DNA of 64,000 nt from Psammoneis japonica (GCA_008632985.1 QPGO01000263.1:1-64000), one strand, 5' to 3'; shown: positions 9,201 to 61,368, counted from the first letter of the stretch. The notes: generated by a model from the sequence alone, not told the origin. Made by a program: numbers and translations.

Positions 9201-9394
9201 ACAAGAGAAAAAGAGGTGTGTGTCTGTTGCTCTCTTCTTTGTTTTGTCCAACACCATGCCACAGTCCATCAAAAAATTTCATCCACGAAGTTGAACATCT
9301 TTCATGCGCCGTTCATTGTTTGAGTCACCCGGCTGTGTCTTTCAGTGCAGCAGAAGTGCACAAGGCCTGCAGTCTGCCACACCGCACAGCACAG

Positions 9395-12800: not shown

Positions 12801-12879
12801 GAAGGGTCAAACCTCTGATGAAGCAACAAAACAGGCCATTCAGCATGAAAAGTTCCACAGCAAACCCAAAAAAACCAAA

Positions 12880-21926: not shown

Positions 21927-23647
21927 TCAATGAGAAAACTGCCTCTTGTCATTGGCAGCCCGTTTGCCATAGGGATTCGAGGCACTAAAACCATGACCCG
22001 ACCCCGACTCGTATTTTCGCTTGTTGCCACCCTGCTTTCTGGATTTTTTCGTCCGTCCCTTGGTTCCAAAGGCCAAATCAACTCTAGGCGGCGTGGTGAA
22101 ACCAAAGGCGAGTCCCACCGCGGCAAGGTCCAATTCATGTACATTGAAAATGTCTCGCTGAGAATGACTAGCATAAGCTAATAGATAACTCCTGTACGCG
22201 TCCCGCGCAGCCCTGTTGAGATAGTAGTTCTTCTCAATCAACCGTTGTAGCTGCGACTGGACATTGGCCACCTTGTTTGCTGGAAACTCGTACTCGTTGA
22301 GTGAAACCTTGGCTGCCTTGAGGTATCGTAGAAATCCCGTTTCTTGCGGAGTCAAGAAGAGCAACGCTCTTCCACTTCCCGTGGCTCCACGAGCCGTACG
22401 TCCTACTCGATGAATGTACTCCTTGGGATCATCCGGCGGATCAAATTGCAAAATCCAATCGACCGATGGAATATCCAATCCCCTTGCCGCGACATCCGTA
22501 CAAAGCAAGGTCCCCTTGGTACTCTTGCAAAACTGGAAAAAGGTTGTGGTGCGCTTGACTTGCTTTTGTCGGCCATGAATGTCCATGACGGGAACATCAA
22601 TGTAATTCAACAATTCCGAATGGAACTTGACCGAGTTGCACGACGAAAAGAAAACCATAATTTTCTTGTTTCGGTTCTTTTTCAAAAAGGTAAAGAGCAA
22701 GAGAAAGCGTTGTTGCGAAGGGCACGTGACATATCCCTGTTCTAGTCCAGCCGCAGTGGCCAACTTGGTTTCGCTTGGAATCTCCACATAAACCGCAGTC
22801 TTTGTATTGATGGAGAGTCTCGCCAAGTCTTCCACCTTTTTGGTTTGCGTTGCAGAAAACAGCATGGTTTGTCTCTGTTTGGGTAAAATCTTGAGAATGG
22901 CACGCAAATCATCCTCAAACCCTTGTTCCAAAATTCTATCGGCTTCGTCCATGACGAGCGCCAATAGATTCCTATAAACAAAGCCCTTGGTGTTTTGCAA
23001 GTGATCCAACAAGCGGCCTGGCGTGCAAATGACAATACTGACACCCTTGGCCAATCGTTCCGCTTCGGTACGGCGATTCGCACCGCCCATGATTAATCCG
23101 TAGGTTTGCGAATGCTGTCGAGTTCCATTGGTGATTAAATCCTTGCACACACCAAAGATTTGAATTGCCAATTCTCTCGTGGGCGAAATCACAATGGCAC
23201 CGGTACCGTTGCGTGTCGAAAACTTGGCCTTGTACAAGAGCTCCAAGACGGGGATCAAAAAGGCCAAAGTCTTGCCACTGCCCGTCTTGGCAGCTCCAAT
23301 CAAATCTTGCCTGCCAGTAGGGACGGAATGGCCTTGTGTTGAATCTGCGTCATGCGTGTGAAGTCCAAAGCCTTGAGTGCCGACTGTGTAGCGTCGGATA
23401 GAGGTAGAGACTCAAAGGTGTCCTTGTCGGAACTGTAGAAATTCGGCTTTTCTGATGATTCGTCCTTGATTTCATCGTTTTTCTTGTCTTTGGGAGATGT
23501 TTCTTCTTCTGCTTGTTCGTCGTCGCTACTACTTGACGAGTCGTCATCGTCGCTGCTACTTGCAGACTTATTCTGTTCCTCCTCTTCCTCTTCACTGCTG
23601 CTGCTGCTGCTTTCCTCCACCTCTTCTTTCGTCTTTTTCTTCGCCAT
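21927..23647 (-). CDS. HAS1: DEAD-box RNA helicase HAS1/DDX18 (1-nt frameshift near 23306)
   Basis: Q motif, [41 protein letters not shown] and the HAS1-type C-terminus ([16 protein letters not shown]). The acidic N-terminus lies in the adjacent frame. Confidence 0.93.
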
Positions 23648-24003: not shown

Positions 24004-25046
24004 ATGACATCGATATCGCAAGGTGAAAAAGCATGCAACAATAGCATTGACGATTCAATTCAAAATCACCTCGTTGTTCTTTACAAAAGTGCCAAGAATG
24101 CAAAACGCAGGTTGCGACCTATTGTTGTCCTCGTTGTGCGTTTCGTTCTTGTTCGCTCAAGTGCTGCAAGGCTCACAAGGATCGGCAAAACTGCAATGGA
24201 AAGCGAGATCGAACCGCCTTTCAGAGTTTGGCATCCATGAATGATTCAACCCTGCAAAGCGACTATCACTTTTTGCAAGATGTCTTGCATCAAGTTACGA
24301 GTGGTAAACGATTGTCGAGTAGTATTGGAATACCAAAACAAACGAGACAACAGCAGCAGCACGAGAAACGAACGATAAGAGTCACGAAAGCAAACTGTTT
24401 CACAAGTACATCCCATCTTGATGCAGCAACAACAACATGAATTGCTAGTCCGACGGAAGAAGGTGAATTACTAGACGACGATGCGACGACGACGACGACG
24501 GAACCGCCAATGCCCAAACGACCAAGGCCTCAAAAAAGCCACAATAATGGCACTACTACTTGGATTCCACCCAAATGGCATCGACTCGTGACGCAAGCCA
24601 AGCAGCGCAAAACCAATTTGTTGCTCATGCCCATGGGAATGGAACGACACAAACAAAACACATCCTTTTTTCAAATCAAGCAAGATTGTATTTACTGGAG
24701 GGTGGAATTTGTCTTGCACAGAATGAAACGGAAAAGAAAACACTGGTGGCACCAAAGATATCTGAAAATGAGAATCTACTAGACGAACTCGTCAAGTTAC
24801 TAACGAGGGAATATCCCAACCAACCAACAGACAACATCCAGGAATGGACGCTCTTGCTCAAGAAGCTACCGTGCCCATCCAATCGCGTCAACTATGTCGA
24901 GTTGCGTCCCAAGGACGATACTACAAACCAAATTACACTCAGGGATGCACTTGCATGCATGACGGTTATTGAATTCCCAACCATTCATGTAGTCTTTCAT
25001 CAAGGCATTTACAGCATTATCCAAGAATGATTGCAGAGCTATAGAT
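24004..25046 (+). CDS. BCD1: Box C/D snoRNA protein 1 (zf-HIT, BCD1/ZNHIT6-like), with several apparent frameshifts
   Basis: From 24081: KCQECKTQVATYCCPRCAFRSCSLKCCKAHK..CNGKRDRT; then DYHFL, LLLMPMGMERHKQNTS, IYWRVEF and a C-terminal VIEFPTIHV. Confidence 0.8.
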
Positions 25047-25142
25047 TAAGAGTATGATAGTGATGCTCTACATGATCCTCTTACTTCTCGATACCGTATT
25101 GAAGGTGGGATGGATACCGTAGAATGTTCCAATGGGTCTTCA

Positions 25143-27082
25143 TCACCCTCGGCACCTCCTTCCATTCCCGCCATGATCGTCAAAGTCGGAAACGAAATCT
25201 TCTTTGGTGCACTTTTGAACTTCGCGCGTCTCGATTGGATACAAGGGCCGCGCCACACTTTGCTCGGCATTGTGGACGCTCGTGGGATTGCAAGTGCCAT
25301 CAACGTGGGTAAACAAAATCCGTTTGATCTGATTCAATTGTCCAATTGAAATAATCATGGGATCAAGCATGACCCACCAGTGTGTTCTCATACACGGAGG
25401 TTCCGTTATGCTTCCCCAATAATGGTAGAAGTAGATGTCTCTCATGATCGCAAATGAGTAGGGATTGAAGACGCCAGTTTCTACCGGTTGTTCTTGTAGT
25501 TTTTGCCGCGCAAGTTCGAGCAGATCGGGATCGACCGGCGAAGGAGCCATAGACAAATCCCGTTCTTTTGTTCGTAACTGCCGCCCTTGACTTTCAATAC
25601 ACTCCATAGTATCGTTATAGTACACTTTCAAAAATTCATCCAGCACTGTTTGGAACTCTTGGTTGTGTCCATTGGCCGTCGCTCGAATTGGCACACCGAT
25701 CGAACCCATCCTATGGGGGTCTCCTGCGTGCATATGAAGCAGTTGCAATTCGGCGTCAAATGCTTCTCCTTCAAACCTATGTTCTCCCGGTACTTTGACA
25801 TCAAAATTGAGCAAATCAGAAAGTGAAGTAGAGCTAGAAGGGTACCTGGGGAAATCGGCCACGGGAGGACGATCTCTTGTACACTCGCGTTCTTCGAAAT
25901 CGTTACACGGCCGGCGATTCATGACGACACTGAGCTTGTGGGGCAAAATTTGCTTCTCAAATATGTCACTAGCGATTGGGTGCTTGCCGCACTGAATAGT
26001 GTGCCAAATTAGTGGAAACAAATGGCAAAAACAACAACCGCGAGCATCAGAAAAGGGCCGGAAAGATGAGATGGAAAACAGCAACACAATTATTTGTGGT
26101 AATCGGTGCAAAAGCAACTTACAGAATTTCGAATTTCATGGGGGGCTTCGCATTCAATGGTTGCAGTTAAATTCTTTGGCGATTGACTTCGACTACTCCC
26201 GTCACATCTATTCCTTGTCGGATCGTCCCGGAAATATCCCCTCCATGGTCCAAACCCATTTCGTCCAATTTCGCGCAATGGGTGACGACTCGTATCAACC
26301 CGATACCATGCATCAGGGCCGTAATCCTCATCATTTATGTCGTAGTTGAAATAACCCCGACCAGGATCTAGGGGGACAGGATTAGGATCCATATAGAATG
26401 GGCTTTCAGTTGGTGAAGGTGTCGACGATGGCTCGCTAGTCGGCTCAGATGAAGGACTAGCCGATGGGATAACACTAGGTGCCGAACTAGGGACAGCTGA
26501 CCGGCTTGGACTTGAGGTAGGAGCAGTTGTCGGGGAAGGAGACATGGTCGGCGCAGTTGTTGACGGGGGCGTAAATTGAGGCGGTCCCAGTGTCAGAGAA
26601 GTAGGCGGTCCCAGGGTCAGAGAAGGAGGCTTTCCCAGAGTCAGAGTATATTCTAATGAGAGCCAATCGACGATGGGACCTCTGCCAGCGGTTGCCAGCA
26701 GCTTCACGGTGTGACTGCCTTGGCTGAAAAACACAATCCTCGAATCTGTATTCCAGTTTGCCCAATCATTCGTCGCTGTCTCCGCAACAGTACCTATTTT
26801 GGTTTCGTCAATAACAAGATCCAAAGGATGGGCATCCAGGGCGGCATATCGAACAACCATGTCATAGGTTCCGGGTTGGGAAATGTCAACGGTCCACAAC
26901 ACGGAGCAACCAGCACTGTCCAAGTCTGCGTATCCTAGTCCTTCAGACCCTGGGATTATCTGGCAGTCGTTTATGGTGGCATCCTCGGCTTGGTACGTCT
27001 CTACCAAACCTGCCACCGCGGTTAGAGAGGTCAAGAGAATCAGAAGCAACATGGCAAGTCTGTTGCCGCACACAGGTGTCAT
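25143..27082 (-). CDS. Secreted CBM6/CBM35-like + Pro/Ser/Thr linker + alpha-carbonic anhydrase-like protein, copy A; intron 25992-26122
   Basis: Signal peptide; YQAEDA...GTYDMVVRYA...T.DWANW; YGPDAW, QSPKNL, PGEH..EGEAFDAELQLLH, YWGSITEPPC, ARPL. The GTAAGT...CAG intron joins the two ORFs. Confidence 0.85.
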
Positions 27083-29689
27083 CGTTGCTACTGTACAGCC
27101 GCTTCCATCTCAAAATGCGGTTTCGTTTCCAAAATTTTTGTGCGTGTGTTGGCTGCCGACGTTATTTCCTGTTCAGTTTTTGCGATACTATGTACATAGC
27201 ATATATAGGCATACTCGGAGTCGTGTAAGCTCAAAGAAAAGTAGTATGGTTGAAAGAGAGTGCAACGGAATGATGGTCGTGTCAAATATCTACATTCATG
27301 TCGTACTGTATTTACTGTATCATATTAAAAACTTACTGTACTGTACATGGCGTACGTTCTTGGTTCGCAAGTAGTACAGTAGGGCCCTCTAGTAGCTAGC
27401 TATGATACCGTGCACCGTGAGTCCACGTGTCGACCGTACAGTACGTCGCGCTCGAGAGTCGAGACCCGTCGTGCGCACCCCTTGCTTCGCAAGTGGTCTG
27501 TGGGATGTGGGTGTCGTGTGCGGTCATGTGCGATGACATCACATGCGTTGAGTCGGACACATTCACATTCTTGCGAACATGTGTGCATGCGTTTGAGGTT
27601 TGGAAGGCCACAATCGATGCATCAGCGGAAAGCGAAGCAGCGTTGGACTCATGCGCAGGCATGCTGCAGAGGGCGAAGGAATGCATTGGTCAACACAAGT
27701 GATGGAAGCAGGTGGAGACATCGCCATCAGACAAGATGCAAAGTTGGGTGAGACATGTGGCTTGGTGAACATTTGAGAGGCAGTCTTGGTGACATTGGAG
27801 GACTGGTGGTTGCATTGAAACTCAAGTGATTCCACCACCTTAAGAAGGACAAAAACACAACGGACAGTCAGCGCAACAACCGCGGAGACAGAACGAACGG
27901 AGTGGCGTGACAACAGGGCAAAGTCACACCTGAGAATTGTCAAATGTGGACATGCCAAAGTTTCTAGAAGCAACCAAGGTTTTGTTTGCATCATCTCCAT
28001 GATGGTTGCATGGTGGTCAGCAAACAAACGTGTCTTCCGCAACAGCGTTTGTGTTGTGTTGCCGCTTGTCCAAAAATGCACAGAAAGCTTTGATCTTCAC
28101 GTTGAGTCAAATGATCCACACATGGCAGCAGTGTTGCAGCAAGCCCACCAAGCAAAAGAGTGAGGATTTTGGATGCACATGATGGGCGTGAAAACACACA
28201 AAACAAACCAGCCCCAAACTGGGAGGAGACGTTTGGCAGAAAGGTTTTTCTTTGCCTCGCAGCTCAACAAAGTGCTCCATGCAATGGAGCAGCATGACAA
28301 TGCTTTGTGAAACTGCCAAGCCATTGCCTCAACAGCAGCCTGCTTAAGATTTGGGGAGGCCAAAGCTGTGAACCACATGAAGCAGGAACAAACGGCAGTC
28401 TCACATGAGCCTTCCACAAATGAAACAAAGGCGTTTGACACGGCATCGCTTGCATCAATGTCAAACAACTGCCAAATTTGATCTGTGGAAATGTCACCTT
28501 CTTTGTGAGAATGGGTTGGCTGAGCATCCAGCCAGTTGCCCTTTAAGAGTGGGTCATGCTCATGGCAAAGGACACAAACAGCATGGCCATCACCAGATGG
28601 TTCATCCGCGTGCCAATTGAACATCGCAGCAAAACGTTTTGTGTCTTTCATGTCTTTTAGTTGCAAATGCATGTGGTTGTTGTGTGGGATTGCAGCTCAC
28701 ACATGCAACACAGCACAGGAGCAAAGGATGTCACAGTGCTTGACCTTGTGAAACACAGAATTGTCTGCCCCACCACAACAGCAGCAGCACCGCTGCCTTG
28801 GTGAGTGCAAAGGCCCGCCAGTTGTGTTGCAGTGTCAACTCTTTTTCTTCTGGTGTCTTTTGGCAGGCCTGGCTGGAACCTGTTGCTTCAGTGGTGAAAA
28901 AGAACTCTTTGTCAATGCAAACAGCAGTGGAGGGAGAGAGCCAGCATGTGCAGTGGTGAGCACGGGCTTCCATGTCAACAGAAAACTGTCATGGGAAGAA
29001 GAAATCAAAAGAACAATCTTGGAGCCAACCGGCAATTGAAGGACATCCTCCAGAATTAAAAGATGGTGCTGGCATGTGAGGAGTTGCGTCAAGTCTGACA
29101 ACTCCCAATCAACGTGGTCAGGGAGTGACTTTTTCTGATGATCCTTTTGAAGACAACGTTGCATGGGGGCGGGTGGGTCGGATTCTTCACTGGAAGCATT
29201 TTGCTTGCTGTTGGACGGCTGTTTGGGCTTGCGTTTCTCATCAAAATTTTGCAGTGCCTTTTTCATCAATGTGGGAATGTTGGGTCATGGTGAGAAAGAA
29301 CCAGAAGAAAAAGATGCATCAACAAGAGGGTCTCAGAAAAACGAAAACAAGGCAGATTTGTCCAGCTCCAACATTGCCTCTCCTTTGGTTTTCTGTTTTT
29401 TGGTTTGACTGCAAAGCTGTGCACCTGGTGGCTTGAGAATCTGCCCTTCTGTGCCTTGAACAACATCACACAAATGCTTGGAGGGAAGACGTTCAAGAGA
29501 GTCAACAACTGGAGTGTGGACCAATTGCAAGTTGGAGCCTGTGCAACAGGCATGGGATCTGGAGAAGAAAAGGTGATGTCTTCTGGATCACATGCCAGTT
29601 GTGTTTGAGTGACCACTGCTGGAGCAAGTTGGTTGCTGTCTGCATGGGGTGTGCAGCAGTGTTGGGAGGGGTTGGGGACAATGGAGGAG

Positions 29690-30200
29690 ACATCGGCATG
29701 GTGGCATTTGTGACAGCATCTGTGGCAGGTGCTGGGGCAAATTGGAAAACTGTGTGAGTTGGCAGCATTTGGTTGTGGATGCCATTGGCACAAGACAACA
29801 ACAGCGTCAACATTGCCTGTGGCAGCAATGGCAGGAGCAACAGCATCGGGCATGCAGGTGGACCCAAACACAGGTGCGACATTGGCACTCATGACAGCAT
29901 CTGTTGGAGGCAGCAGAGGGTGGAAATGACAGTGTGAGTTGGCGCCATTCATTTGTGGATGTCATTGGCACAAGCCAGCGACAGTGTCAACATTGCCTTT
30001 GGCAGCAATGGCATGAGCAACAGCATCAGGCATGCCAGTTGAAAGAAATGCAGGCACAGTGTTGGCATTCAGGATGGCATCTGTGGGAGGTGGTTTGGCA
30101 AGGAAACAAAACAGCGTGAGTTGGCAGCATCTTGTTTTGCCTGCATCAGGCCATTCAGAACAGAAGCAATGGCATCACCTGTTGTGTCAGTGTCATTTGC
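29690..30200. repeat. Tandem repeat of about 180 bp, about 2.5 copies
   Basis: gtgagttggc(a)gc(c)att... recurs near 29754, 29934 and 30116, with a shared caacattgcct.tggcagcaatggca segment. Confidence 0.8.
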
Positions 30201-33200
30201 AACAGTGTCAGTGGGAACAGTGTCCTGGGAAGGTGTTGGGGAAGAATTGCGAGGCATCATCATGGTCGATCTGAGTTGATGCGTGCATTTTTTGCGGTGT
30301 GGAAATGGCCAAAAAAGTGTCTTTGTCTGGGGTTGAGAATGTGGTTCAGGATTTTTCCTGTTGCTGTTGGCATTTGTGCACAAATGCAAAATTTGGCAAC
30401 ATTTCATCATGTAAAAAATTCATGACGTGAACATTGTGCATCACCATGACATCAAAACCACATTCTCCACTTGCAAAAGGGCACATCTTGCACATGCGCT
30501 GGTGCGGCCACTTGTGGAAATCAGGGTGTGTGCAACCGTTCTGCCACCACAGAGCACAAATCTCCATGGGTGGAGATTTGCTCCCACTTTTGGAATTGTG
30601 GTGTGTCATGCATTTGCATGTTCATGCAATGAACATGGTGCAAAAATGTCACATCATGCACAATCTTCATAAAACATGCCACAGGCATTTGCTTGCCCAC
30701 TCCCCAGCATTTGGAAGAAAGAAAATGTTCAGACACTGACAAATTTTACATGCATGAAATTTGACACTGAGGTCTGCATGTGAACCTTGGCATCAGCATC
30801 TGAGCTCTTTCTTCCTCCCAGATTTGAAGACACCTTTTCACAAATCAAGCCACATCAAAAAAATGCTGCGCTTTCACCACAAGAGGGAACATGACAGCTC
30901 ACATGGCAGCACCACAGCCAATTGGGCAGAGCTTGGCAGGGTTGTTGGGATCTTTGTGAAGGGCTGTGAAGCAGTTGGCCAACAGAATTGTGCAGATTGC
31001 AGGAGGCAGAGTGTTGGACTGGACAAGCCTGGGTGGGTCTTTGAAGTGGAGAGGTGGGGAAGCATTTGTGTTTTGGTTGGGTTGAGGTCTTAAAAAGAGC
31101 ACATGCCTTGAGCCTCAAGAAGAAGGTCAGCAGAGTCTGCAAAGGGTCCAGCAGCTGCACCTGGCATGCATTTGCTGAGGGCAGAGAGCAAGTCTTCATC
31201 AGACAAATCTGGAGAAGCAGGAGGTTGTGCAGGGTTTTGGGTGGTGTTGGGTGGATGAGAATGTGGGACAGTTGATGTGAGGTGGACACAGGGATTCAAT
31301 GATGGAGTCAACAGCAGTGATTGGCAGATTTGATGCAGCTTGGCAACACACAATGCCAAGATTGTCAAAATCAGCTGAGCCTGTTGAGTGGTGTGGCAGC
31401 AGCTTGAGGTGGAGAAGTCAGGGGCGGTGTGAGTTTGTGTGAGCAGAGGTGAGATTGTGCATGTGGCGCTGCAAAGTTTGCACATGTGGCATTGATTGAG
31501 CACTGCTGCCAAGTCATCACCACCAAGTCAACTGCTGCTCCAGCACCACTGCGGTGGCAGCTGTGCTGAGACTGTTGTTTTTGCTGAGACTGTTGTCAAA
31601 AACACATTTTGACATGCCAGTCTGCAACTGACAATTGCAAATCCTAATCTGTGCATTGTGTCAAATGCATGTGCATCCCATCTGACAGCATCCAGCTCTC
31701 AATCACTGCCAATGAGTCCAACACAGGCACCTGCAGCATCAATCAACTTGACTTTTGGATTCTCCATGGCACCGCATGTTCAATCTTCTGACTTGAGGTC
31801 CACACAAAGGATCCTGGACCCATCATGACCACCCAAAAAATGCACCTTGTTCATTTTCCTGGTGGAGACCTGCGTTGGCAAGGGGATGATGGCCTTGGAA
31901 GACAGGACCTCAGAGTCAGACTGCCCCATTGAAGACAGCTCATCTGAAAGAGCTTCAAGGTGCTTGCAGACATCATGAAGTTCATCATTGCCACCATGGT
32001 TTCCCCCTTTGGCAGTGGCTTCATTGATGAGAACTGCGTGGAGAGTGTCCATGTCCATGGAGTGCTGTGGCCATTGGAAGGCACAACTGAGCATCCGTCC
32101 ATTGCCCACAACAGACAGCTGGATGCCAGGAAGGTCTGTGGTGCAAACACCAAATGAAGCTTCAATGACCAACACAACATGATTGGTTTTGGCAACAGAA
32201 TCCTTGCAAGTGGCTTGCAAAGCCATGGGCTTGAAGCTCTGCCAACCTCCTTGCCCACCACATCTCCACCACAGAAGCAACACTGGCTCCATTCATGACA
32301 GCAGTGGCATCATTGTGTTGTTCACAGAGGAGCTGGAGCCAATGCCATTGTCTGACCAGTGCTGTCAAGGCTGCCTGAGAACAGCTCTTTGTCACATGAA
32401 TGCGGTGACAATCAAAACTCACCATCGGGGTTCTTGTTGTTGTTGTTGTTCATTGTTTGATGAAGATTGAATCCAGTTTCATTTTTGAGCCTGCACAAGC
32501 CAGCATGGAGCTTGTCCAGTGGACAGCGCATGAACTTTGGGCGCAGCTGCTGGATCTCTTTTGGTGTCACTCCAGCACTTGTCCTGCCATCCATTGGCAG
32601 CATCTCTTTTTTAAGAGTTTGCAGTTGGTGGGCCCCTTGTGCCATGCTGCTCAAAGGGGGGTGGCAGCCTTCATGTCAAGAACTGATTTGGTTTGTTGGT
32701 TGAGTTTGGGCATGATTTCTTTTGTTTTTTCTTTTTCATGTGAGGATGGATGGTGCACAGTTGAGAGATGTCAAGATCAGCATTTGTGTTGATGGGCAGC
32801 AATGAGAACCCCATGTTTGAATGGGTGACAACCAACCCACCTCACCACTGTCCCTGGGGGACACTCTTTTCAAATTTGAAAAATTCCAGCCGCCAAAATG
32901 AGATTTGAGAGAACACCAACTGCCAAAATTGAGAAAGGGCCTCTTGAAATCAAAGATTTCCTCAAGACCACATGAAAAATGTTTGGAGTCCATGCAAAAA
33001 CTGTTCCCAAATTGCACCCAAAACAATTTTCAGCACAAGAACAATGACTTTGGGCCATCTCAACTGAAGAATCAGTGGCTAAATCCTCAGTTTCAGCTTG
33101 CATTGGCAATGGTGCTGATGGCAAACTGGCACCTGCAGCTTGTTTTGGCTTTTCATTGGCACATTTCTGTGCACTTTTTGTCTGTGAACAGGTGATTTCA

Positions 33201-33599
33201 TTTTGATTTGCAGAACAAGAATGCTTTTTTGATGCCCCATCAACCATGCTTAAAATTCTGCATCACATGTTGTGTCTCAACTGCCATGTTGGTTGAGCTA
33301 ACAGCATGAGTTGGAATGGTCATTCTACCAGGTTCCGGTTGATGAAATGATTCCCAAAGTTGCCATTTGCAAACGTCCTGAAGTCACCATTCTGAAACCA
33401 TGCCCGAATTGCTCTTTTTTTGAATTTTTTGTCACACACAACGGAGTCTCACATGGGGGGGCCTCTTCAAGTGAGAACACCAACTGCACGAAGATGACAA
33501 AACACAACTGTCAACAACAGCTGGATTGGCACAAATGGTGCCACAGAAAAAGTCTTTAAAACACACAATTGTGCATGCTGCCAATTGCAAATCATGAGT

Positions 33600-34388
33600 C
33601 TGCCCAGAGTCTGCCCAGAGTCTGCCCAAAGAGGCTGTGGAGCACTTGGCACAGACGATCATTCAGATGCCAAAAGGGTGCAGTGTGGAATCCTTGGTTC
33701 ACATCATGCTTCTGTGCCTCACAAGAAGCAGCATCTGAGTTGTGGGGGCTTCTGATTGACAATGGGAAAATGCCACAAGAAATTTTGCTCATTCACCTGC
33801 TCTGTGTTTTCTCAAATTGTGTGAATCTCAGGCAGTCATTGCTGGCATCTGCAATGAAATCCATTCACTGGGAAGACTGCTTCATTGACAACAATGGCAA
33901 CACATGTTTGGCGACACTTGACAGCACTGATTTCAAAATCTATGAGCCATCACCATTCAATTCAATGTGGTTCTCCCACAATTGCTGGGCTGCAGTGTGA
34001 AATTGGAGCATGCACTCAAACAGGGTGGATTGTTTGGGTCAATGGGCCACACCCAGCTGGGTTGGCAGATCTGAGTGTTGCTTGCAAATGGATCATTGAA
34101 GAGCTTGAAGATGGCAAGATGCATCTGGCTGACAGTGGCTGCAGCAATGGGAGCCAGCACAGCATGACTCCATCTGGCCCAAGAAATGCAGATGAGGCCA
34201 TGAAAACCACATTGAGGGCAAGGCATGAGGCTGTGAATGGGTGTCCCAAGCATTTCAGAATGCTTCGGAACAGATGCCACCACACAAAGGAAACACATTG
34301 CCGTGTGCTTCATGCTGTGGCCAACATCACACAGTTGGCCCTCATGATGGGTGACTCACCATTTGACATGGAGCATTTTGACAACTGA
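33600..34388 (+). mobile_element. PIF/Harbinger-type DDE transposase pseudogene (DDE_Tnp_4-like)
   Basis: LDSTDFKIYEP..WFSH, GLQCEIG..TGWIVWVNGPHPAG, LADSGC and RARHEAVNG correspond to DGTD, LRYE, GPYPAG, ADxGY and RARHETVN. Confidence 0.85.
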
Positions 34389-34499
34389 CATCAACAGCAG
34401 AAGAAGGCAAATTGTTGCCAAGATGATGTTGCCATGAATGTTTCTTGATCTCATGGCCAATGCAATGCTCTCACACAAGTCAATTGCAAGCAAAAGCAA

Positions 34500-36780
34500 A
34501 CCCCTCCTCTCTGCATTTTTCATCTCCAATTTCTGCAGATGATGGGGACCAGATGCCGATGCCGAGTGACAAAACAACAGCCTTGTCTCACACCAAGCTT
34601 GTGGTCAGTTGACTCCATTTCTCTTCAACTGAAGTGGCACATTGCTGGAGCTCTCACCACCACCACAAACACATCAGCCTTCACCCAATGACTTTTCCAA
34701 GATGGACAATTTGGCATTGACATCAAGAGAGGCCTTGACTGCCTTGCACACATGCCACACATGCCAATGTTGAGCAATGTCTCAACACCAAAGCACCCTC
34801 TCTTTTCTCTCTCTTGACCTTGTCAACTTTTTCTGGAGGCACATGCAACAGGGGACCAACAAACTGCCCAAAAATTCCATCTTCTCACACTCATCTTTGA
34901 CATTTTCCATGATGCACCCAACACATGCTGGTGTCATGACCCCACTGGTGCCTGGAAATCCTTTCTCCAACCAGAAGACTTTTGTCAAGACTGTCCTCTA
35001 GCCTTGCCCTTTGCTGCTCTTGTCTCCTCAGCACTCATCTCAAATGTCCAGACTCTCTGAACTTCATGAATGCCTCCCCTCAACCAACATCATGACCGCC
35101 TCTTTAAATTGGATGACACTGGCACCTGGCTCCCACATGCAAAACTGCCATGGTTCCTTGAATGTCTCATGACTGTTGGACCCCAATGTGGCTTTCTCAT
35201 CTCAGCCATGACAAGATCACCATCCTGCTGACCTCCACATTTTGGGCTCCTCCCCCCTCTCTGACCTGTCCTCAGCCAGTGCCACCACTCTGTGCCAAGC
35301 ACTGTTCTTCATGGATCCAAACAACAATCCGGCCTCATCTCCCAAAATTGCTGCAAGCCACCACATCCATGGCCAGCCCATTGGCAGCATTGTCTTCACA
35401 CAAACATTCCTGGCACAAAAATTTGCAACTCTCCACACCAACCTCAACTGTCTCTCATCTTCACTCCAAGATGCTCAAACCAAGAGATCCCTGTGCTGCA
35501 CATGTGCCATCTTCTCCATGCCCTGCACCTCCTGGTCTCCAATGTTTGTCACAACTTTGATCCACACAACCCCACTCCATCACCACATGGTCCTCTCCCT
35601 TTCAACATGACACTTGACAACACTCCAGTGCGTTTTTGAAACACAATCTCGCTGCCCACTCCCAACCCTTGCCACCCCATGCCTTGCTCTTCTCTCACAC
35701 ACTTGCATCTGAGCCAGCAGCATTGACTGTCACTCCATCTCAGCCAGCGCCATGCCCTTCCTTGTTGCTCAACTTAACTGCTTCTTTTGCTGCTCCACCC
35801 ATGGTCTCATCACATCCTCTGGTGATCCTCTCCCATTCCACATTCTGTGCCCAATCTCCATGCACCTGGGCCACCTCCAGACAATCACTGCACCTCTGTC
35901 TTCTGCCCCATCTGGACTCTTTGCCCCTTCCCTTGCCAACCTTGTTGAAACATCTTCACTCAAAACCCCACTCCAAACCCTGCATCATGCCCAGCACTTC
36001 AAACATCAATGTGAGACCAACTTTGACTGAGTGGTCCATCCCACATCATCAAGGCCATCCCTTCTTCCCTTTTGCCCCCCCCCCCCCCCCTTGCAAGCCT
36101 CCCACTTTGCTCCTTCACCCGCTAGACATCAAGCCAACGCTGCATCCCAACCATCTTCAGGCTCATGCTCCTGCACAAACTGCATGTCCAAATCTCCTCT
36201 GATCAACTTGACTCCATCTCCTGCTCACCCACTGTAACGGCACTGTTGACCCATGCGCTGGCATTCATGCTTTTTGCTGCCATGCCTTCAGACACAAGAT
36301 CGCCCTGTCTGGTGCACTCCACAACAGCTCATTTGCAATGCTCCAGACAATTGGCCCCTGCACTGACTCTTCCGCTGCACAACACAAACCAGCAAACCTC
36401 ATGCTGCACTCACCACTCAAACACCCTTCTGATGTCAGTGTAAAACTCACCCCTGCTTTCTCCACCACTTCTCCTCCAGGACACGGCTGCCTCAACAGAG
36501 ACATTGTGGTCCCTGCACCAACACTCCCAGCTCCTGGCTTGCCTGCCCCTGCTCAAAGCCCCTTTGCCAAGGCACACCACATGAGCACCAAGCAGAAATT
36601 CCATGGCACCCATGAAACTCAGTGTGGAACAACTGTGATCACCTCTCTGAATGCCACTGGGGTCCACCTGACCCCTTTCACCATTGACCGCCTTGGCACC
36701 CCTGGATGCTTTGCTCACCGCCTGCTCTTTGGAGCCAACCAAGATCACCCTGCACCAGTCCCACCGGCCCCACCCTGGAC
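34500..36780 (+). mobile_element. Decayed non-LTR retrotransposon (RT plus restriction-like endonuclease C-terminus)
   Basis: ttttgtcaagactgtcctcta (cf. FxQGCPL), GQPIGS..F, HPSDV and LTPFTIDRLGTPG..AHRLL. Many stops. Confidence 0.5.
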
Positions 36781-36861
36781 ATACGAATCCTCCTTGCAAC
36801 ACTCATCAGCCCATGCTGCCTACACCAATGCCCAGCTGTCTGCATCTGAACAAATGACACA

Positions 36862-37057
36862 TCACATCAAGGAATGGATGCTCTTGCTCAAGAAGCTACC
36901 GTGTCCATCTAATCGCGTCCACTATGTCGCGCTGCGTCCCAAGGACTATAAAATAAACCAAGTGACATGCATGACGGTTATTGAATTCCCAACCATTCAT
37001 GTAGTCTTCAATCAAGACGATTTACAGCGTTATTCAAGAATAATTGCAGAGCTATAA
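36862..37057 (+). pseudogene. Duplicated 3' end of BCD1
   Basis: IKEWMLLLKKLPCPSNRVHYVALRPKD...VIEFPTIHV is nearly identical to 24835-25040. Confidence 0.85.
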
Positions 37058-37119
37058 CCAGAGAATAAATTGTGTGCGCGTCACTAGAGACAATTTAAGA
37101 ATATTGTGGTGACGTTCTA

Positions 37120-37235
37120 CTTCTCTTACTTTTCGATCAAGGGATCACTGAATTCATTGTGAAGCTTCTTCATGTGATATATCGTCGGGATCGAAACCGT
37201 TTTGAAGCTACCGTAGGATGGGCCGCACCTGAAAT
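37120..37235 (-). pseudogene. Decayed copy of the last exon of the isochorismatase gene
   Basis: gggatcactgaattcattgtgaagctt..catgtg..accgttttgaag..ggatgggccgcacctg aligns by eye to 40060-40144. Confidence 0.65.
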
Positions 37236-37303
37236 AAATATGCTAAACGTCCAGAAGTGAGATTGAAGATACTGCAGAATGATCCAATGGGTCTTTATCA
37301 CCC

Positions 37304-39263
37304 TCAACACTTTCTTCCTTGCGAGCCACGATCGTCGAAGTCGGAAATGAAATCATCTTTGGTGCACTTTTGAACTTCGCGCGTCTCGATTGGGTACAAG
37401 GGCCGCGCCACACTTTGCTCGGCATTGTGGACGCTCGTGGGATAGCAAGTGCCATCAACGTGGGTAAACAAAATCCGTTTGATCTGATTCAATTGTTCAA
37501 TTGAAATAATCATGGGATCAAGCATGACCCACCAGTGTGTTCTCATACACGGAGGTTCCGTTATGCTTCCCCAATATCTGTAGAAGTAGATGTCTCTCAT
37601 GAACGCAAATGAGTAGGGATCGAAGTTGCCATTTTCTACCGGTTGTTCTTGTAGTTTTTGCCGCGCAAGTTCGAGCAGATCGGGATCGACCGGCGAAGGA
37701 GCCATAGACAAATCCCGTTCTGTCGTTCGTAACTGCCGCCCTTGACTTGCAATACACTCCATAGTATCGTTGTAGTACACTTTCAAAAATTCATCCAGCA
37801 CTGTTTGGAACTCTTGATTGTGTCCATTGGCCGTCGCTCGAACTGGAACACCGATCGAACCGACTCGCTCGGGTACCCCTGCGTGCATATGAAGCAGTTG
37901 TAGTTCGGCGTCAAATGCTTCCCCTTCAATGGTATGTTCTCCCGGTACTTTGATGTCAAAATTGAGCAAATCAGAATGTGGAGTCACGCGACTAGAGTAC
38001 TTGGGGAAATCGGCCATGGGTGGTCGATCTCTTCTGCACCTGGGATTTTCGTAATCGCCACACGGCCGGCGATTCATGACGATACTGAGCTTATGGGGCA
38101 AAATTTGCTTTTCAAATTTGTCACTAGCGATCCCGTACTTGCCGCACTGAATAGTACGCCAAAATAGTAAAAAGATATAATAGTTAAACCAGCCGTGAGC
38201 ATCAGAAGAGGGCGGAAAAGATGAGATGGAACACAGCAACACACTCATTCGCGGTATCGGTGCAAAAGCCACTTACATCACTCCGGATTTCGTGGCCTGC
38301 TTCGCATTCAATGTTTGCAGTTAAATTCTTTGGCGATTGACGTCGATCACTCCCGCCCGGAGTGATCGAACTCCCGCCACACTTATTCTCCGTCGGATCG
38401 TTCCTGAAATATCCCTCCCACGGTCCAAACCCATTTCGTCCAACTTCGCGCAATGGGTGACGACTCGTATCGACCCGATGCCATGCTTCAGGGCCATAAT
38501 CCTTATCATTCAGGTCGTAGTTGAAGTAGCCCCGACCGGGATTGAGGGGGACAGGATTTGGATCGACATATAATGGGCTTGAAGTTGGCGATGGGGTTGA
38601 GGATGGCACGCTACTAGGTTCAGTTGATGGACTAGTTGAAGGAACATCACTGGGTGCCGAACTAGGGACAGCTGACCGGCTTGGACTTGAAGAAGGAGCA
38701 GTTGACGGGGAAGGAGACACGGTCGGCGCAGTTGTTGACGGGGGCGTAAATTGAGGCGGTCCCAGTGTCAGAGGAGGCGGTCCAAGAGTCAGAGGAGGAG
38801 GCTTTCCAAGTGTCAGAGTATACTCTAATGAGAGCCAATCGACGAAGGGACCTCTACCTGCGGTTGCCAGCAGCTTCACGGTGTGACTGCCTTGGCTGAA
38901 AAACACAATCCTCGAATCTGTATTCCAGTTTGCCCAATCATTCGTCGCTGCCTCCGTAACAGTACCTGTTTTGGCATCGTCAATAACAAGATCCAAAGGA
39001 TGGGCATCCATGGAGGCATATCGAACGATCATGTCATAGGTTCCGGGTTGGGAAATGTCAACAGTCCACAACACGTAGCAGCCAACACTGTCCAAGTCTG
39101 CGTATCCTCGTCCTTCATATCCAGCGTGTGAATCCATTATCTCGCATTTTTGCATGGTGGCATCCTCCGCTTGGTACGTCTCTCTCAAACCTGACACCGC
39201 GGTTAGAGAGGTCAAGAGAATCAGAAGCAACATGGCGAGTCTGTTGCTGCACACAGGTGTCAT
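37304..39263 (-). CDS. Secreted CBM + alpha-carbonic anhydrase-like protein, copy B; intron 38147-38276
   Basis: Close paralog of 25143-27082 with the same domain order and intron position. Confidence 0.85.
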
Positions 39264-39669
39264 CGTTGCTACAGCCGCTTCCATCCCAATCTTGCGTTTT
39301 ATCTTCAAACAAAGTAGAGAGTTAAAGAGCCTCTACTCTACTCTAGCTACTACTAGAGACCTTATCTATTGAGAGAGGAGAGGTAGGGCCCTCTCTCTAG
39401 AGACTAGCCTACCGTACTGAGGAGAACTGAGCATGGACGTTTCCCGCATTTTTTCGATCCAATAATTGGTGTCGCACACTCGAGTCGTGATTTCTCACAG
39501 AAAAGTAGTATCGTTGAAACAGACCACAACGGATTGATGAGCAATTGATAGCATATTTAATCTTTAATCATGGCGAATACTTATTTTTGTCGGACCTTCT
39601 TGGTTCGCGCCAAACGACTCACTCCGTGCTTCCACTTTTTCAAAGTCCCATGAATATTGGATGGATTGA

Positions 39670-40775: not shown

Positions 40776-41518
40776 TTTCGTAAATCTTTGTCTGAAGAAA
40801 TTATCAACACCAGAAGAACAACACGGACAGGGACCCGCAGGAGCAACGAGAAAAGAAACGAGGAAAAATTTTTAAAAGTGAGATTGACCAATACAGATTG
40901 TAGGATAGATTTTATCTTCGTAAAATAAAAAGTAATTTTGTGTTCAATGCAGGCATCTTGAACAATGTGGTAGCCGAGAGATTTTGGGCCTACATCCGTC
41001 GGTTTATCACCCGAACTCCGCTCACCTGCTACTTGCGCGGCAGTGCCTTATAAACGCTGAAACATGGGATGAAAGCAAAAGCACCCACAGGATGACGACA
41101 GCTGTCCCTACTCTCATGTTCGTACCTCCTTTTTCTTAATCCGATTGGTATGCCTGGTTCAGCTGCTTCCACTTTCCTCTATCATCGATCATCGAATCAT
41201 TGCGGTCTGAGGTCGTCGAAATAAAACGACGCCGTTGTCGGAGGGCGGTCGGGCCGGTCGGAGGGAAGAAGTGACGTCATTCAGGTAGAGACGGATAGAC
41301 GCTTCGAATCATTCGACTACTCTGACTCATTGCAACCGATCATTTTTCTTTGCGACAACAACCACAAACTAACAACATGACACATCAACCTGCAGAGCAA
41401 ACTCACTCATCCACATCACTAATCGAACGATTGACTCACTAGCTGCCTTGATCGTATTCGTCGCTTACCGTGGAAACAAAGTTTGAAAGAAAGGATTGAG
41501 AAAACCAAAACGACAAGA

Positions 41519-42628
41519 ATGAGCAGAGGTATGATGCTACGGGCTTGGCAGCTCGCGCTTGTAGCGATAGGACTTTTGTCATTGCCTGTAAACGCAGTCA
41601 ACAGTCGCGGTACTCACAAGAGTGGTTGGCTAGTAAAGAGGCCTGGTTATTTGAATTATGCATTAAAGAGTTTGTTTCGCGGAGGAGCTGGGCAAGACGG
41701 GGGAGAAGAAAAAGCTCAAGAAATTGTTCCAACGCCTCTCGAGACGACCAGCAAAGAAAATAGCAACAAGAGGACAATGTACAATGTTTCAGTATGTTCC
41801 AAACAGGGTGATCGGATATACATGGAAGATGAATACTTTTGCAGTCGCGGCGGTGATTTCTGTGCGGTATTTGACGGGCATGGCGGCAAGGCCGTGAGTC
41901 GCTATCTGCGTCAAAATCTTTATGCCAACCTAATCGCGGCGCTTCCTGCCGGAGTCAACCGTCGAGATGACGACCCACAATCCGACATGCCTACTGTATT
42001 AGATTTCTCCAATGCATTGGCTCAAAGCATTGAAAAGGTAGATCAAGAGGTACAGCGCATTAGTCACTGGAGTTATCAGGGGAGCACCGCCGTCTGCGTT
42101 TGGCTTCACGAGGACAGGAGGAGTGGTTCTTCGGCCAAAACGATTCTGGCTGCAAATGTCGGTGACAGTCGTGCGGTTCTTAGTCGTGCTGGTGTGGCGA
42201 TTGATTTGACACGCGATCATAAACCAAATGACCCAATAGAAAAGGCACGAATTGAGGCTAGGGGTGGGGAGGTTGTCAATGCAGGTGGCGTCTATCGAAT
42301 CAACGGGAACCTGGCGCTGTCTCGTGCCATTGGAGACCGATCAGAACGACCCTCTGTGAGTGGTGAACCAGAGATTCGATCCGAGTTGCTTGATGAAACA
42401 TGCGACGGGTTCATCATTCTTGGTTCGGATGGTCTGTGGGACGTCATGGGTTCCCAAGAAGCAGTGTCGTTTGTACACGCAAAGCTTGAAGAAACGCGGA
42501 ATTTGTCTGGCGAAGCCTCTGTGGATGAATCAAGAATTGCAACGTTGGTTACTGATGAAGCGCTACGTCGCGGTTCCGTCGACAATGTGACCGTTGTCAT
42601 TATATGGCTAAACATCAATGGCGAATGA
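41519..42628 (+). CDS. PP2C-family Ser/Thr phosphatase with an N-terminal signal-like peptide
   Basis: GDRIYMED, VFDGHGG, GSTA, ANVGDSRAVL, DHKP, LALSRAIGD, GSDGLWD, DNVTV. Confidence 0.93.
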   Translation: MSRGMMLRAWQLALVAIGLLSLPVNAVNSRGTHKSGWLVKRPGYLNYALKSLFRGGAGQDGGEEKAQEIVPTPLETTSKENSNKRTMYNVSVCSKQGDRIYMEDEYFCSRGGDFCAVFDGHGGKAVSRYLRQNLYANLIAALPAGVNRRDDDPQSDMPTVLDFSNALAQSIEKVDQEVQRISHWSYQGSTAVCVWLHEDRRSGSSAKTILAANVGDSRAVLSRAGVAIDLTRDHKPNDPIEKARIEARGGEVVNAGGVYRINGNLALSRAIGDRSERPSVSGEPEIRSELLDETCDGFIILGSDGLWDVMGSQEAVSFVHAKLEETRNLSGEASVDESRIATLVTDEALRRGSVDNVTVVIIWLNINGE

Positions 42629-42990: not shown

Positions 42991-44127
42991 TCACGTTGCT
43001 GTAGGTTCTGTGCTGTGCTGCTTCTTGTGAGAAGCCCCATACATCATTCCTAATCTTCCTATGTTGTCAACGCTTCGCTTTCGTTCGTTGGGAAAGCGGG
43101 CCTCCTGCGCTTCGGCAGCATTCCGTAGCAAACATTCTGCCGCTACATAGGTTTGCCTTAGCTCCGGAGCCTTCTCGCGCAAACATTGGCTAGTCTTTTC
43201 CCGAGGCTTCTGTCCTAGAACTTCTCTCCAAACACCACCCCTTTGTTCCAGAAACCTCCCCCCATTGCTATACACCATATTTACAATATGTTGCGCAATA
43301 ATGGCTTTCTGATTCTTTGCGGAAGTGAGATACGCCCGTTGATGCTGACGAATCAGTTGCCTGTATTTGACGTTGCCCACGTGAGCATTGCTTACGCCAC
43401 CTCGACCAAGCAGCACATCAGCATCTGTAGGAGTAATTTCTACAGCTGAAGTTTCCTTTCTCGTCTTTAAACTTGTCTCGGATGCTTGTGCATTGAAAAC
43501 TACAGTTTCGGGAAGCTTGGAAATCTGATGTTTCGTATACAACCACTGTGCTTCCTCCAACGAAGAATTGCTTTTCTCTCGAAGCGCTTGGCATGTCTTT
43601 TCCCTTGCTTTGTCACCAATATCCCTCCACCGGAACAATCCTGTGCGCGCGTCACGGTGCAAATCGACCTTCTTCAGGAACCTTCCACCGCTGCTTCTTA
43701 TACTTTTAACAATCCCATCCGCTATTTCAGCTTTCACAAGCGCTTTGGCAGATACATAAGTTGGTTGGCAGTGTGACACAAGGGTTCGGAAATGAACATT
43801 ACCGGGGTGAGCATTCGTGCCGGCACCTCGTCCGCACAACACGTCTTGGTCCGTTATTGTTGTGATGTAGTCAATGTTTGCCTCGTCGTCTGCGGGAAAG
43901 TCTAAGGATGCAACTTCCAAAAGAGGATCATCATTCGTTTGAGGACTACGAAGTGGCGAAAGAATGGGGGAACATGACGAGGTTGGCGAAATCAATTGTC
44001 GTGGTTGCTCTCTCGTTCCACCAAGAAGCGGCTGAATCCCACTTGCATCATTCTGATTTCGTTTCGTTTCTCCTTGATCGATTTCGTTTTTTTCTCCACT
44101 CGTCTTCTCAATGTTAGTATGTCCCAT
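42991..44127 (-). CDS. Protein with two DUF6824-type domains
   Basis: Two copies of DVL(C/L)GRG...HxGN..(F/Y)R...GGRFL...REKT.Q.LRE. Confidence 0.85.
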   Translation of the reverse strand: MGHTNIEKTSGEKNEIDQGETKRNQNDASGIQPLLGGTREQPRQLISPTSSCSPILSPLRSPQTNDDPLLEVASLDFPADDEANIDYITTITDQDVLCGRGAGTNAHPGNVHFRTLVSHCQPTYVSAKALVKAEIADGIVKSIRSSGGRFLKKVDLHRDARTGLFRWRDIGDKAREKTCQALREKSNSSLEEAQWLYTKHQISKLPETVVFNAQASETSLKTRKETSAVEITPTDADVLLGRGGVSNAHVGNVKYRQLIRQHQRAYLTSAKNQKAIIAQHIVNMVYSNGGRFLEQRGGVWREVLGQKPREKTSQCLREKAPELRQTYVAAECLLRNAAEAQEARFPNERKRSVDNIGRLGMMYGASHKKQHSTEPTAT

Positions 44128-44503
44128 TTCTCTAATCTAGCATAATGTATTGGTTGTGATGACGCGTCTTTTAGTTCTCAACGATAGTTTGTCACCATTT
44201 TCCATCGGCGTTCTGTTTTTGTGATGTGAGCTTCTCATTCAAGTCAAATCGTGTTCGGGTTCAAAAATCCATTTATTCATGCTTGAAGGTTTTTCATAAA
44301 ACACGTCAGACGTCGTGTCATGTCGATCGCGTGCGCGGTCCGCTCGGTCGTGCGCGCGCGCGCTCTGTGCGTGTTGCGGAGGCACGCGACATGTTGGATG
44401 TTGACATGTTGTTGCGGTTGTTGTTTGTTGCGCGTTGTTTGTGTTCACGAAGTGTTGTTTTCGAGATTCGCCTTCTGAGGTCGTTATTATAGTTCTTCAA
44501 TCT

Positions 44504-48900: not shown

Positions 48901-49636
48901 CGGGTGTCGGAGGCGGCGTCGGGGTAGGCGTCGGAGGAGGAGAAGGCTGCTTAGTAGGGCTCAACGTGACAACGGCGTCCGGTGCTGACGGTGCGGGTGT
49001 CGGGGGCGGTGTCGGGGCAGGCGTCGGAGGACGAGTAGGCTGCACAGTCGGGCCAAACGTGACAACGGAATCCGGTGCTGACGGTGCGGGTGTCGGAGGC
49101 GGTGTCGGGGTAGGCGTTGGAGGAGGAGTAGGCTGCGTAGTGGGGCTCAAAGTGATAACGGGAGCCGGTGCCGTTGGTTCTGGCGTTGGGGCAGGCGTCG
49201 GAGGAGGAGTAGGCTGCGTAGTGGGGCTCAACGTGACAACGAGAGCTGGAGCTGACGGTGCGGGTGTTGGCGGCGGTGTCGGTGCAGGTGTTGGCTCTGG
49301 GGTCGGTGGTGGAGTCGGTGACGGGGATGGCTCTAGTGTTGGCTCGGGCGTTGGTTCCAAGGTAGTCACTAGTTCGTTACTAGGTGCTGGAGTTGGAGCA
49401 GGGCTGGGAAACCTCCAAATGAGTTCCGACGATTTCGTAGGCGCACATGTAGCCTCGCCTTCCAGCTCTCGAATCGTTCCTCTTAGGTTCGTTTTGCTTG
49501 CCAAAGCTCTGTGGATTGACTTCAAGAACGAATTGATCCTTCCTTTGACTTCGACTCCTGTCGGAAGAAGATTTCCATTTGTAGCAACAGAGGAACCACA
49601 AACGAGGACGTACACAAGCGTGACTCCTACCTTCAT
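45971..49636 (-). CDS. Secreted Pro/Thr-rich and Ser/Lys/Gly-rich low-complexity protein (silaffin-like cell-wall candidate)
   Basis: Signal peptide [24 protein letters not shown] motifs; PTPAPT repeats; KGKGKGGK; many [10 protein letters not shown] and DPALPFPPS modules. Confidence 0.75.
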
Positions 49637-49644
49637 GTTGTATT

Positions 49645-49666
49645 TTCTCTCTCTCTCTCTCTCTCT
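49645..49666. repeat. (TC)n microsatellite just upstream of the start codon
   Basis: About ten tc units. Confidence 0.8.
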
Positions 49667-61365: not shown

Positions 61366-61368
61366 AAA

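Follow-up and report, generated by a model that had tools for sequence, protein, structure and literature searches.

The question raised by this locus is in which direction, and by what kind of process, the DNA around a dead transposase gene has mutated. The gene lies in a stretch of 64,000 nucleotides (nt) from the diatom Psammoneis japonica (GCA_008632985.1 QPGO01000263.1:1-64000), hereafter the window, where an earlier note had described a DDE transposase relic at 33885..34388 with systematic replacement of Tyr by Cys or His. The note took this replacement as protein-level evidence for loss of the dinucleotide TA, read an Arg to Gln change as loss of CpG, and proposed a tabulation of substitutions at conserved Tyr and Arg codons. 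That tabulation, given below, finds Tyr kept at none of four conserved columns and Arg at two of seven. The absent tyrosine is one symptom of a purge of TA and CG that extends over the whole island in which the relic lies, and we consider a directional loss of both dinucleotides in situ to be very probable.

Tyrosine and arginine codons of the transposase relic

The relic consists of two halves in different frames of the + strand:

~33665-34388, + strand: frameshifted relic of a DDE_Tnp_4 (PIF/Harbinger-type) transposase, from homologue alignment and tblastn
33665-33982, + strand: N-terminal half, in the frame of the open reading frame (ORF) 33560-34000, matching homologue residues ~30 to ~175 (tblastn, frame 2)
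33979-33987, + strand: +1 frameshift joining the halves, ~4 residues absent (tblastn)
33984-34388, + strand: DDE core with all three motifs below, ending in a TGA stop at 34386-34388
33858-34388, + strand: stop-to-stop ORF of the relic core, 176 aa with 0 Tyr, 8 Cys and 15 His
33987-34007, + strand: motif GLQCEIG, in the same frame as the next two
34044-34061, + strand: motif GPHPAG, inside ORF 33858-34388
34119-34142, + strand: motif MHLADSGC, inside ORF 33858-34388

The three motifs are those named in the earlier note, and the forms it had expected occur in homologues: GLRYEIG (P0022, P0023), NGPYPAG (P0014, P0018) and KYLADGGY (P0001). Its interval holds for the catalytic core, but the relic extends upstream, in another frame, to ~33665. 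With 29 listed relatives of at least 270 aa as tblastn queries, residue 167 of P0004 ends at 33979 (frame 2) and residue 172 begins at 33984 (frame 3), and most other homologues likewise break near 33979-33987. The relic reaches the normal C-terminus of the family at 34385, and the first ~30 N-terminal residues are undetectable. The same queries find no second copy of the relic within the window.

The assignment to DDE_Tnp_4 is supported. Pfam PF13359 matches the relic with E = 2e-4 and 21.4 bits over profile positions 29-156 of 158, just under the gathering score of 24.8. A phmmer search of 1.84 billion representative proteins returns 701 relatives at E <=1e-3 and 105 at <=1e-10, the best at 2.5e-28 with 43% identity. 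Three of six full-length relatives exceed the PF13359 cut-off (P0014, 26.1; P0024, 38.5; P0028, 28.8 bits) and since the other three (P0004, P0035, P0038) give no match, the relic represents a divergent branch of the PIF/Harbinger-type (DDE_Tnp_4) family. It resembles PIF/Harbinger transposases (PF13359) in motif order and in retaining three acidic columns, which we take to be the catalytic triad of the family: the Asp codon 33920 (column 100% Asp; within LDSTD, the first Asp motif, in the N-terminal half), a second Asp codon at 34131 (96%) and the Glu of RARHE, codon 34227 (94%). None of these three codons holds TA or CG. The relic differs from such transposases in its sub-cut-off Pfam score, its frameshift and its lack of detectable terminal inverted repeats. 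No such repeats convincingly frame the gene in 31500-36500, where 13 weak inverted pairs of 14-26 nt are 73-93% complementary; their absence is expected because of the heavy mutation, and speaks against an intact element, not against transposon ancestry.

The reference for the column test was 137 of the 150 listed relatives, the Tyr-poor ones being left out, and the halves of the relic were aligned separately. Columns were taken as conserved where the consensus residue reaches at least 60%, which gives 83 columns, 55 retained in the relic and 28 changed. The codons concerned are:

33996, + strand: former Tyr codon, now TGT (Cys); column 94% Tyr
34140, + strand: former Tyr codon, now TGC (Cys); column 94% Tyr
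34374, + strand: former Tyr codon, now CAT (His); column 78% Tyr
33809, + strand: conserved Tyr (column 93% Tyr), now TTC (Phe)
34050, + strand: probable former Tyr codon, CAC, the His of GPHPAG; column 63% Phe, 26% Tyr
34122, + strand: probable former Tyr codon, CAT, the His of MHLAD; column 43% Val, 20% Tyr
34275, + strand: probable former Tyr codon, TGC; Phe/Tyr or Val/Tyr column
33878 (TGC), 33993 (CAG), 34083 (TGC), 34242 (TGT), 34278 (CAC), + strand: former CGN Arg codons, one transition each
33923 (Gly to Ser), 34116 (Glu to Lys), 34368 (Val to Met), + strand: CpG to CpA changes across a codon border, the preceding codon ending in C
34077 (Ile to Val), + strand: TpA to TpG change across a codon border, the preceding codon ending in T

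Tyrosine is encoded only by TAY. A Tyr column that reads Cys (TGY) or His (CAY) therefore polarises the mutation without an outgroup genome, and short of a second genome there is no cleaner evidence of direction; on this point the note was right. Three of the four conserved Tyr columns read Cys or His and the fourth, at 33809, reads Phe. The two Arg codons retained are both AGG (34215, 34221), which has no CpG. At the other conserved columns (neither Tyr nor Arg) 53 of 72 residues are retained. Compared with these by Fisher's exact test, Tyr columns have p = 0.007 and Arg columns p = 0.024. The replacement of Tyr by Cys or His that the note had called systematic is thus found at 33996, 34140 and 34374 and fails at 33809. 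The His of GPHPAG and of MHLAD, like the Cys at 34275, are each one transition from TAY, but the first two stand in columns that are mainly Phe or Val, so that ancestral Tyr there is a one-step reconstruction. The Arg to Gln change by CpG loss is borne out at 33993, one of five CGN codons that now read TGN or CAN. The Tyr and Arg changes match TA to TG/CA and CG to TG/CA transitions, as protein-level evidence of direction. The refutation that the note had foreseen, Cys or His at these positions in intact homologues, is not borne out: in the 137 non-degraded homologues the two best Tyr columns (94% Tyr) hold Cys or His in only 3/110 and 6/137.

Single transitions that destroy TA or CG explain 12 of the 28 changes at conserved columns. 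The relic has also lost residues that are 94-100% conserved (Gly 33923, Glu 34116, Lys 33980). Tyr makes up a mean of 3.8% of the 137 homologues vs 0 in ORF 33858-34388. The 402 nt of the core contain 0 TA and 2 CG; in 44 metagenomic relatives the TA density of the same segment (~400 nt) is 34.5 per kb at the median and 10.7 at the lowest. Over 33560-34388 (829 bp) there are 1 TA and 4 CG, against 105 CA and 103 TG. Both strands were changed, with 3-4 outcomes as TGY or TG vs 1-3 as CAY.

Purged islands, their edges and the timing of the change

Five islands purged of TA and CG make up 27,904 bp of the window, and are compared here with 30,007 bp of gene-bearing DNA. They have sharp edges and alternate with genes of normal composition (a silicon transporter, a helicase, a PP2C phosphatase, carbonic anhydrases):

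27443-36860 (9.4 kb), no strand: island holding the relic, from TA/CG counts
1-9450, no strand: purged island, approximate edges from 500-bp bins
11950-13500, no strand: purged island, approximate edges
17950-20500, no strand: purged island, approximate edges
51450-57000, no strand: purged island bounded by a direct repeat pair resembling long terminal repeats (LTR-like)

Island and gene-bearing DNA compare as follows:

TA per kb (ratio to expectation): islands 3.2 (0.049), gene-bearing 37.7 (0.55)
CG per kb (ratio to expectation): islands 11.1 (0.19), gene-bearing 56.9 (1.0)
CA plus TG per kb: islands 229.4, gene-bearing 145.1
All pyrimidine-purine steps per kb: islands 243.8, gene-bearing 239.7
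GC content: islands 0.486, gene-bearing 0.477

Per kb, the islands have 80 fewer TA and CG and 84 more CA and TG, and CpA and TpG stand at 1.8-1.9 of expectation. As GC content and the total of pyrimidine-purine steps are unchanged, and the gain of CA/TG is close to the loss of TA/CG, island composition is the outcome expected from transitions within TA and CG alone. For the whole window TA is 0.33 and CG 0.60 of expectation, with a bimodal distribution: 500-bp bins contain either 0-5 or at least 10 TA, intermediates occurring only at edges or in two unrelated bins. The left edge of the relic island is sharp, with 38 TA in 27002-27442, the last at 27442, and 0 in 27443-27800. The right edge is at ~36780-36900, and the flank 36864-37056, paralogous to 24834-25043, retains TA and CG.

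Because TAA and TAG stops vanish, 222 ORFs of 70 aa or longer run through the islands, and these spurious long ORFs can pass for genes. Scanned with Pfam, 220 ORFs of this length from the five islands yielded no other gene relics; matches to TPR_10 and DUF3678 were sub-threshold and are set aside as chance. The purge thus also defeats homology-based annotation of transposons, with one Pfam-recognisable relic in 27.9 kb.

The time and place of the change can be read from repeats, including a control in normal DNA:

51682-52113 / 56261-56733, direct: LTR-like repeat pair, 69% identical, bounding the island 51450-57000
25113-27113 / 37268-39289, - strand: tandem duplicate of a gene pair, 2 kb, 87.6% identical, flanking the relic island

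Where the copies of the LTR-like pair differ by two transitions in one dinucleotide, 18 sites show CA opposite TG, vs 10 for the five other double-transition classes combined. Six further island repeat pairs show 36 such sites vs 17 other double transitions. In the control, a gene pair with carbonic-anhydrase and CBM6/CBM35 domains in which TA and CG are normal in both copies, CA opposite TG accounts for 1 of 15 double transitions. If each copy resolves at random to CA or TG, half of the sites disagree, and 18 sites in ~430 bp correspond to ~36 ancestral sites; the density in normal DNA, 94.6 per kb, predicts ~41. From this excess and this match, the change in TA and CG occurred in situ, later than the duplication, and each copy changed independently.

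Loss of TA and loss of CpG are separable. TA is more depleted than CG in all five islands, and a 280-bp zone inside the left edge of the relic island (27444-27722) has no TA and a normal density of CG (22 CG). The 13 nearly Tyr-free proteins among the 150 listed relatives, from metagenome or run assemblies, have Cys or His at the three core Tyr columns in 10/10, 11/13 and 10/12 cases and retain Arg (mean 7.4% vs 6.9% in the others). Among 44 fetched loci, the first 1570 bp of L044 have 2 TA but 55 CG, the stretch 268-966 of L021 lacks TA altogether and L010 is purged in part. The differing edges, the retention of Arg in low-Tyr relatives and the composition of L044 together separate the TA purge from CpG decay. 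TA-poorer transposase segments tend to have fewer Tyr, and several loci carry Cys or His at Tyr columns; L026 and L032 are among the TA-poorest loci yet keep Tyr at their only aligned Tyr column. The TA purge is a process of its own, seen in several environmental genomes, to which CpG loss is added in Psammoneis japonica; the latter looks like a second, ordinary process.

Almost TA-free, CG-rich blocks stand on metagenome contigs with transposase relatives at L044:1-1570, L021:268-966 and L029:1-362. Pfam scans of 26 ORFs in the TA-free blocks of L044, L021, L029 and L032 found no recognisable families; the single match, to Response_reg, was sub-threshold and was discarded.

The context of the surviving TA is strongly biased. 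In the islands 50 of 90 lie in TTAA, TTAG or CTAA, vs 9.6% of TA in normal DNA. Relative to normal DNA, survival is 0.46-0.58 in these three contexts, 0.13 in CTAG, 0.05-0.11 in the mixed contexts TTAT/ATAA and TTAC/GTAA, and 0-0.03 in ATAT, GTAC, ATAC/GTAT, ATAG/CTAT and GTAG/CTAC. The erasure of RTAY and survival of YTAR (R, purine; Y, pyrimidine) reflects either a preference of the process for purine-T-A-pyrimidine or regeneration of TA by C to T change at dipyrimidines.

The island is reproduced at ~60-fold word depth by contigs built independently from a public run, a single sample that is probably the assembly's own and whose library type is not on record. The six longest contig pieces (769-1776 nt) have 0 or 1 difference each from the island, and one contig, 27026-28268, spans the left edge with 1 difference. 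Four differences between contigs and assembly within the island (27726, 29744, 30965, 33013), seen in a single contig per site, are all at CG/CA, TG/TA or TG/CG and are too few to bear weight. Word depth is 3-18x the single-copy level at 29605-30906 and 31341-34378 (including 33945-34378), from contigs of 90% likeness or more; some of the island is therefore repeated, and related sequence exists, elsewhere in the genome. No RNA data set is listed as covering 30001-39000, which has no bearing on whether the region is expressed.

Proposed explanations: targeted editing, slow decay and others

The explanation proposed here is that a PIF/Harbinger-type DNA transposon inserted between the two tandem gene copies of the diatom and then died, and that the surrounding island of foreign or repeat DNA was altered in place by two context-specific transition processes. 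The first, nearly complete, converted TpA to TpG or CpA (A:T to G:C); the second, less complete and with a slightly different boundary, converted CpG to TpG or CpA (G:C to A:T). Tyr codons thereby passed from TAY to Cys TGY or His CAY and Arg codons from CGN to Cys, His or Gln, AGG being spared. The data above show the direction and contexts of the change, its occurrence in situ later than duplication, its sharp edges and the separability of its two parts. The second process is presumably deamination of 5-methylcytosine in methylated transposon DNA. The first may be hypermutation targeted by chromatin or by foreignness, of the kind described in Bigelowiella natans, most plausibly by deamination of adenine in DNA at 5'-TA-3' on either strand. 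Taken together, the dead transposon, the in-place purge of TA and CG and the targeted TpA hypermutation form an explanation that we regard as likely. For its parts, a dedicated targeted process is slightly favoured over passive decay, and adenine deamination as the chemistry of TpA loss is put forward tentatively.

The B. natans case is described in a preprint (Mettrop et al., bioRxiv 10.64898/2026.01.13.699255, 2026), in which two integrated viral regions of B. natans mutate in mutation-accumulation lines at ~6e-7 per site per generation, 1000x the background, in only some of the lines, and almost exclusively by A to G or T to C change, in each case at TpA. In the same text, domains of DDE endonucleases and reverse transcriptases are over-represented among TpA-poor coding sequences, an ADAT2-like enzyme is proposed to deaminate adenine, and neither diatoms nor CpG are mentioned. 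As far as that text goes, the two cases agree in A:T to G:C change at TpA, with TpG or CpA as the product depending on the strand, in the long-term signature of low TpA and high CpA plus TpG in clustered windows, and in restriction to foreign DNA within a normal genome, though the foreignness of the diatom islands rests on the relic and the LTR-like pair. They differ in that B. natans is a chlorarachniophyte (Rhizaria) with viruses as targets, whereas the host here is a diatom with transposon-like islands. The B. natans text also gives a directly measured rate, a purge still far from complete, with a TpA ratio of 0.45 in the viral region, and effects on TpA only; the diatom islands show the end state only, nearly total with a TpA ratio of 0.05, and are depleted in CpG as well (0.19). 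No report of TA purging in diatoms was found in the literature searched, in which the B. natans preprint was the only precedent to surface, and the present case shows the same TpA-purge signature in another lineage, where it has reached its end state and is accompanied by CpG decay.

The CpG half of the signal has an ordinary parallel. According to the available text of PMC9998398, transposons of Phaeodactylum are CpG-methylated by DNMT5a. Decay driven by 5-methylcytosine agrees with a CpG level of 0.19 of expectation, a gain of TpG/CpA confined to repeat islands and the change of Arg CGN to TGN/CAN in the relic, methylation being presumed here. It explains only the smaller half of the signal: TpA is beyond its reach, and it does not share its boundary with the TA purge.

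A slow passive bias is nevertheless a serious rival, though a rather unlikely one. In silent, unrepaired heterochromatin, TpA sites with a base that is modified or prone to damage (for example hydroxymethyluracil, a base-J-type thymine or an ultraviolet TA photoproduct), together with 5-methylcytosine at CpG, would let the sequence drift over a long time to an equilibrium of CA/TG. CpG decay of methylated transposons is ordinary, and the YTAR-biased survivors fit regeneration of TA as well as they fit an enzyme preference. Several further findings weigh against targeted editing or against parts of the account above. The LTR-like pair is old, with 60 transversions and 60 gap columns in ~550, and over so long a time a slow bias could therefore reach the same end state. 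Of the 28 changed conserved columns, 16 show something other than a transition that destroys TA or CG, among them the Tyr at 33809, whose change to Phe is not a transition. If the copies that give the extra read depth are themselves purged, part of the purging came before part of the duplication. The label of transposon island, with one recognisable relic in 27.9 kb, rests on that relic, one LTR-like pair and raised read depth. What speaks for targeting is that, for TA to reach a ratio of 0.05, the forward rate must be tens of times as high as the back rate, an effect beyond the CpG decay of mammals, that the TA edge is razor-sharp and the bins bimodal, and that the same signature in B. natans is episodic at 1000x the background in the available text of the preprint.

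Other enzymatic routes fare far worse. Fungal repeat-induced point mutation (RIP), whereby duplicates detected by homology are mutated by a DNMT-like (RID/DNMT4) enzyme, shares with the islands a transition-only, dinucleotide-specific and irreversible inactivation of repeats in sharp-edged blocks beside normal genes; the islands do contain repeats, and diatoms encode DNMT4 enzymes related to fungal RID according to the available text of PMC9998398. Its polarity is opposite: the RIP of ascomycetes turns CpA into TpA and yields AT-rich DNA full of TpA and stops, but the islands lose TpA to 0.05, gain CpA/TpG at unchanged GC and lose TAA/TAG, and a cytosine enzyme cannot produce A:T to G:C change. 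A duplication trigger is contradicted by the 2-kb gene duplicate at 87.6% identity with normal TA and CG. Polarity and this spared duplicate rule RIP out, and we give it next to no credence. Equally far-fetched is RNA editing, in which an ADAR-like enzyme would act at UA within double-stranded transcripts, changing A to I, and the edited copies would become permanent through reverse transcription and re-integration. The preference of ADARs for a 5' U (cited in 10.64898/2026.01.13.699255) and the LTR-like pair that bounds one island would suit it. The relic, however, is of a DNA transposon, which has no RNA intermediate, the purge runs continuously over non-coding DNA to a sharp genomic edge, the members of the LTR-like pair changed independently after integration, and both strands are equally affected in the relic. 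The nature of the target, the continuous non-coding coverage and the post-integration timing rule this explanation out.

The signal might, finally, be an artefact of modified bases misread, since some long-read base callers are known to miscall methylated bases, or the subfamily might natively carry Cys or His at its Tyr positions, as do the few non-degraded homologues counted above. Either seems very improbable. The independent contigs match the island and span its left edge, albeit from the same sample; this agreement excludes a polishing artefact better than an artefact of chemistry, and it is the Tyr loss in relatives from unrelated metagenome assemblies that speaks against the latter. Further points against this explanation are the frameshift, the complete absence of Tyr and the loss of the Gly, Glu and Lys noted above.

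On the reading of targeted TpA editing, the wider proposition is that diatoms have an active DNA-editing defence that turns TpA into TpG/CpA in transposon or foreign DNA until hardly any TA remains, is of the B. natans kind and independent of cytosine methylation, erases RTAY and leaves about half of YTAR, the Tyr-less relic and its metagenome relatives being protein fossils of its action. The evidence leaves this evenly poised. If the same kind of system does operate in B. natans and in diatoms, it would be widespread in the SAR supergroup (stramenopiles, alveolates and Rhizaria). A major group of phytoplankton would then possess a genome defence resembling RIP but opposite to it in polarity and distinct in chemistry, linked to the sole experimental case, B. 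natans, and suggestive of an old or recurrent adenine-editing immunity of eukaryotes. The context bias of surviving TA would offer a testable fingerprint for the enzyme, and the reading of conserved Tyr turns the composition of a TA-free island into a polarised mutational process.

Genes and other features of the window

The silicon transporter encoded in the window (Silic_transp, E = 8e-209) marks the host as a diatom, and the nearest clusters in a protein atlas are likewise Bacillariophyta. Genes of normal composition between the islands include the following; besides this transporter, their products are a DEAD-box helicase extended at its C-terminus by an SPB4-type region, a PP2C phosphatase and a protein that has two DUF6824 domains:

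9947-11599, + strand: gene of normal composition
21927-23411, - strand: gene of normal composition
41435-42628, + strand: gene of normal composition
42991-44136, - strand: gene of normal composition

An 83-N run (assembly gap) lies at 61368-61451, with a single N at 1903.

In 34500-38000 the + strand is strongly C-rich (GC skew -0.2 to -0.3) and carries long spurious ORFs rich in Pro, Ser and His, e.g. 35618-36202. This C-richness exceeds what the excess of CA over TG explains. Strand bias was considered as a clue to the chemistry and rejected, as arithmetic alone couples the GC skew to the surplus of CA relative to TG, in whatever proportion TA- and CG-derived changes are mixed.

A 1282-aa open frame at 45971-49819 (- strand) gives no Pfam match and contains internal tandem repeats at 46020-47590 and 48610-49300 (68-83% alike). 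It is strand-asymmetric, with TG 3-5x CA and a GC content of 0.55-0.59, a phenomenon different from that of the purged islands, and is probably the gene for a repetitive secreted or cell-wall protein.

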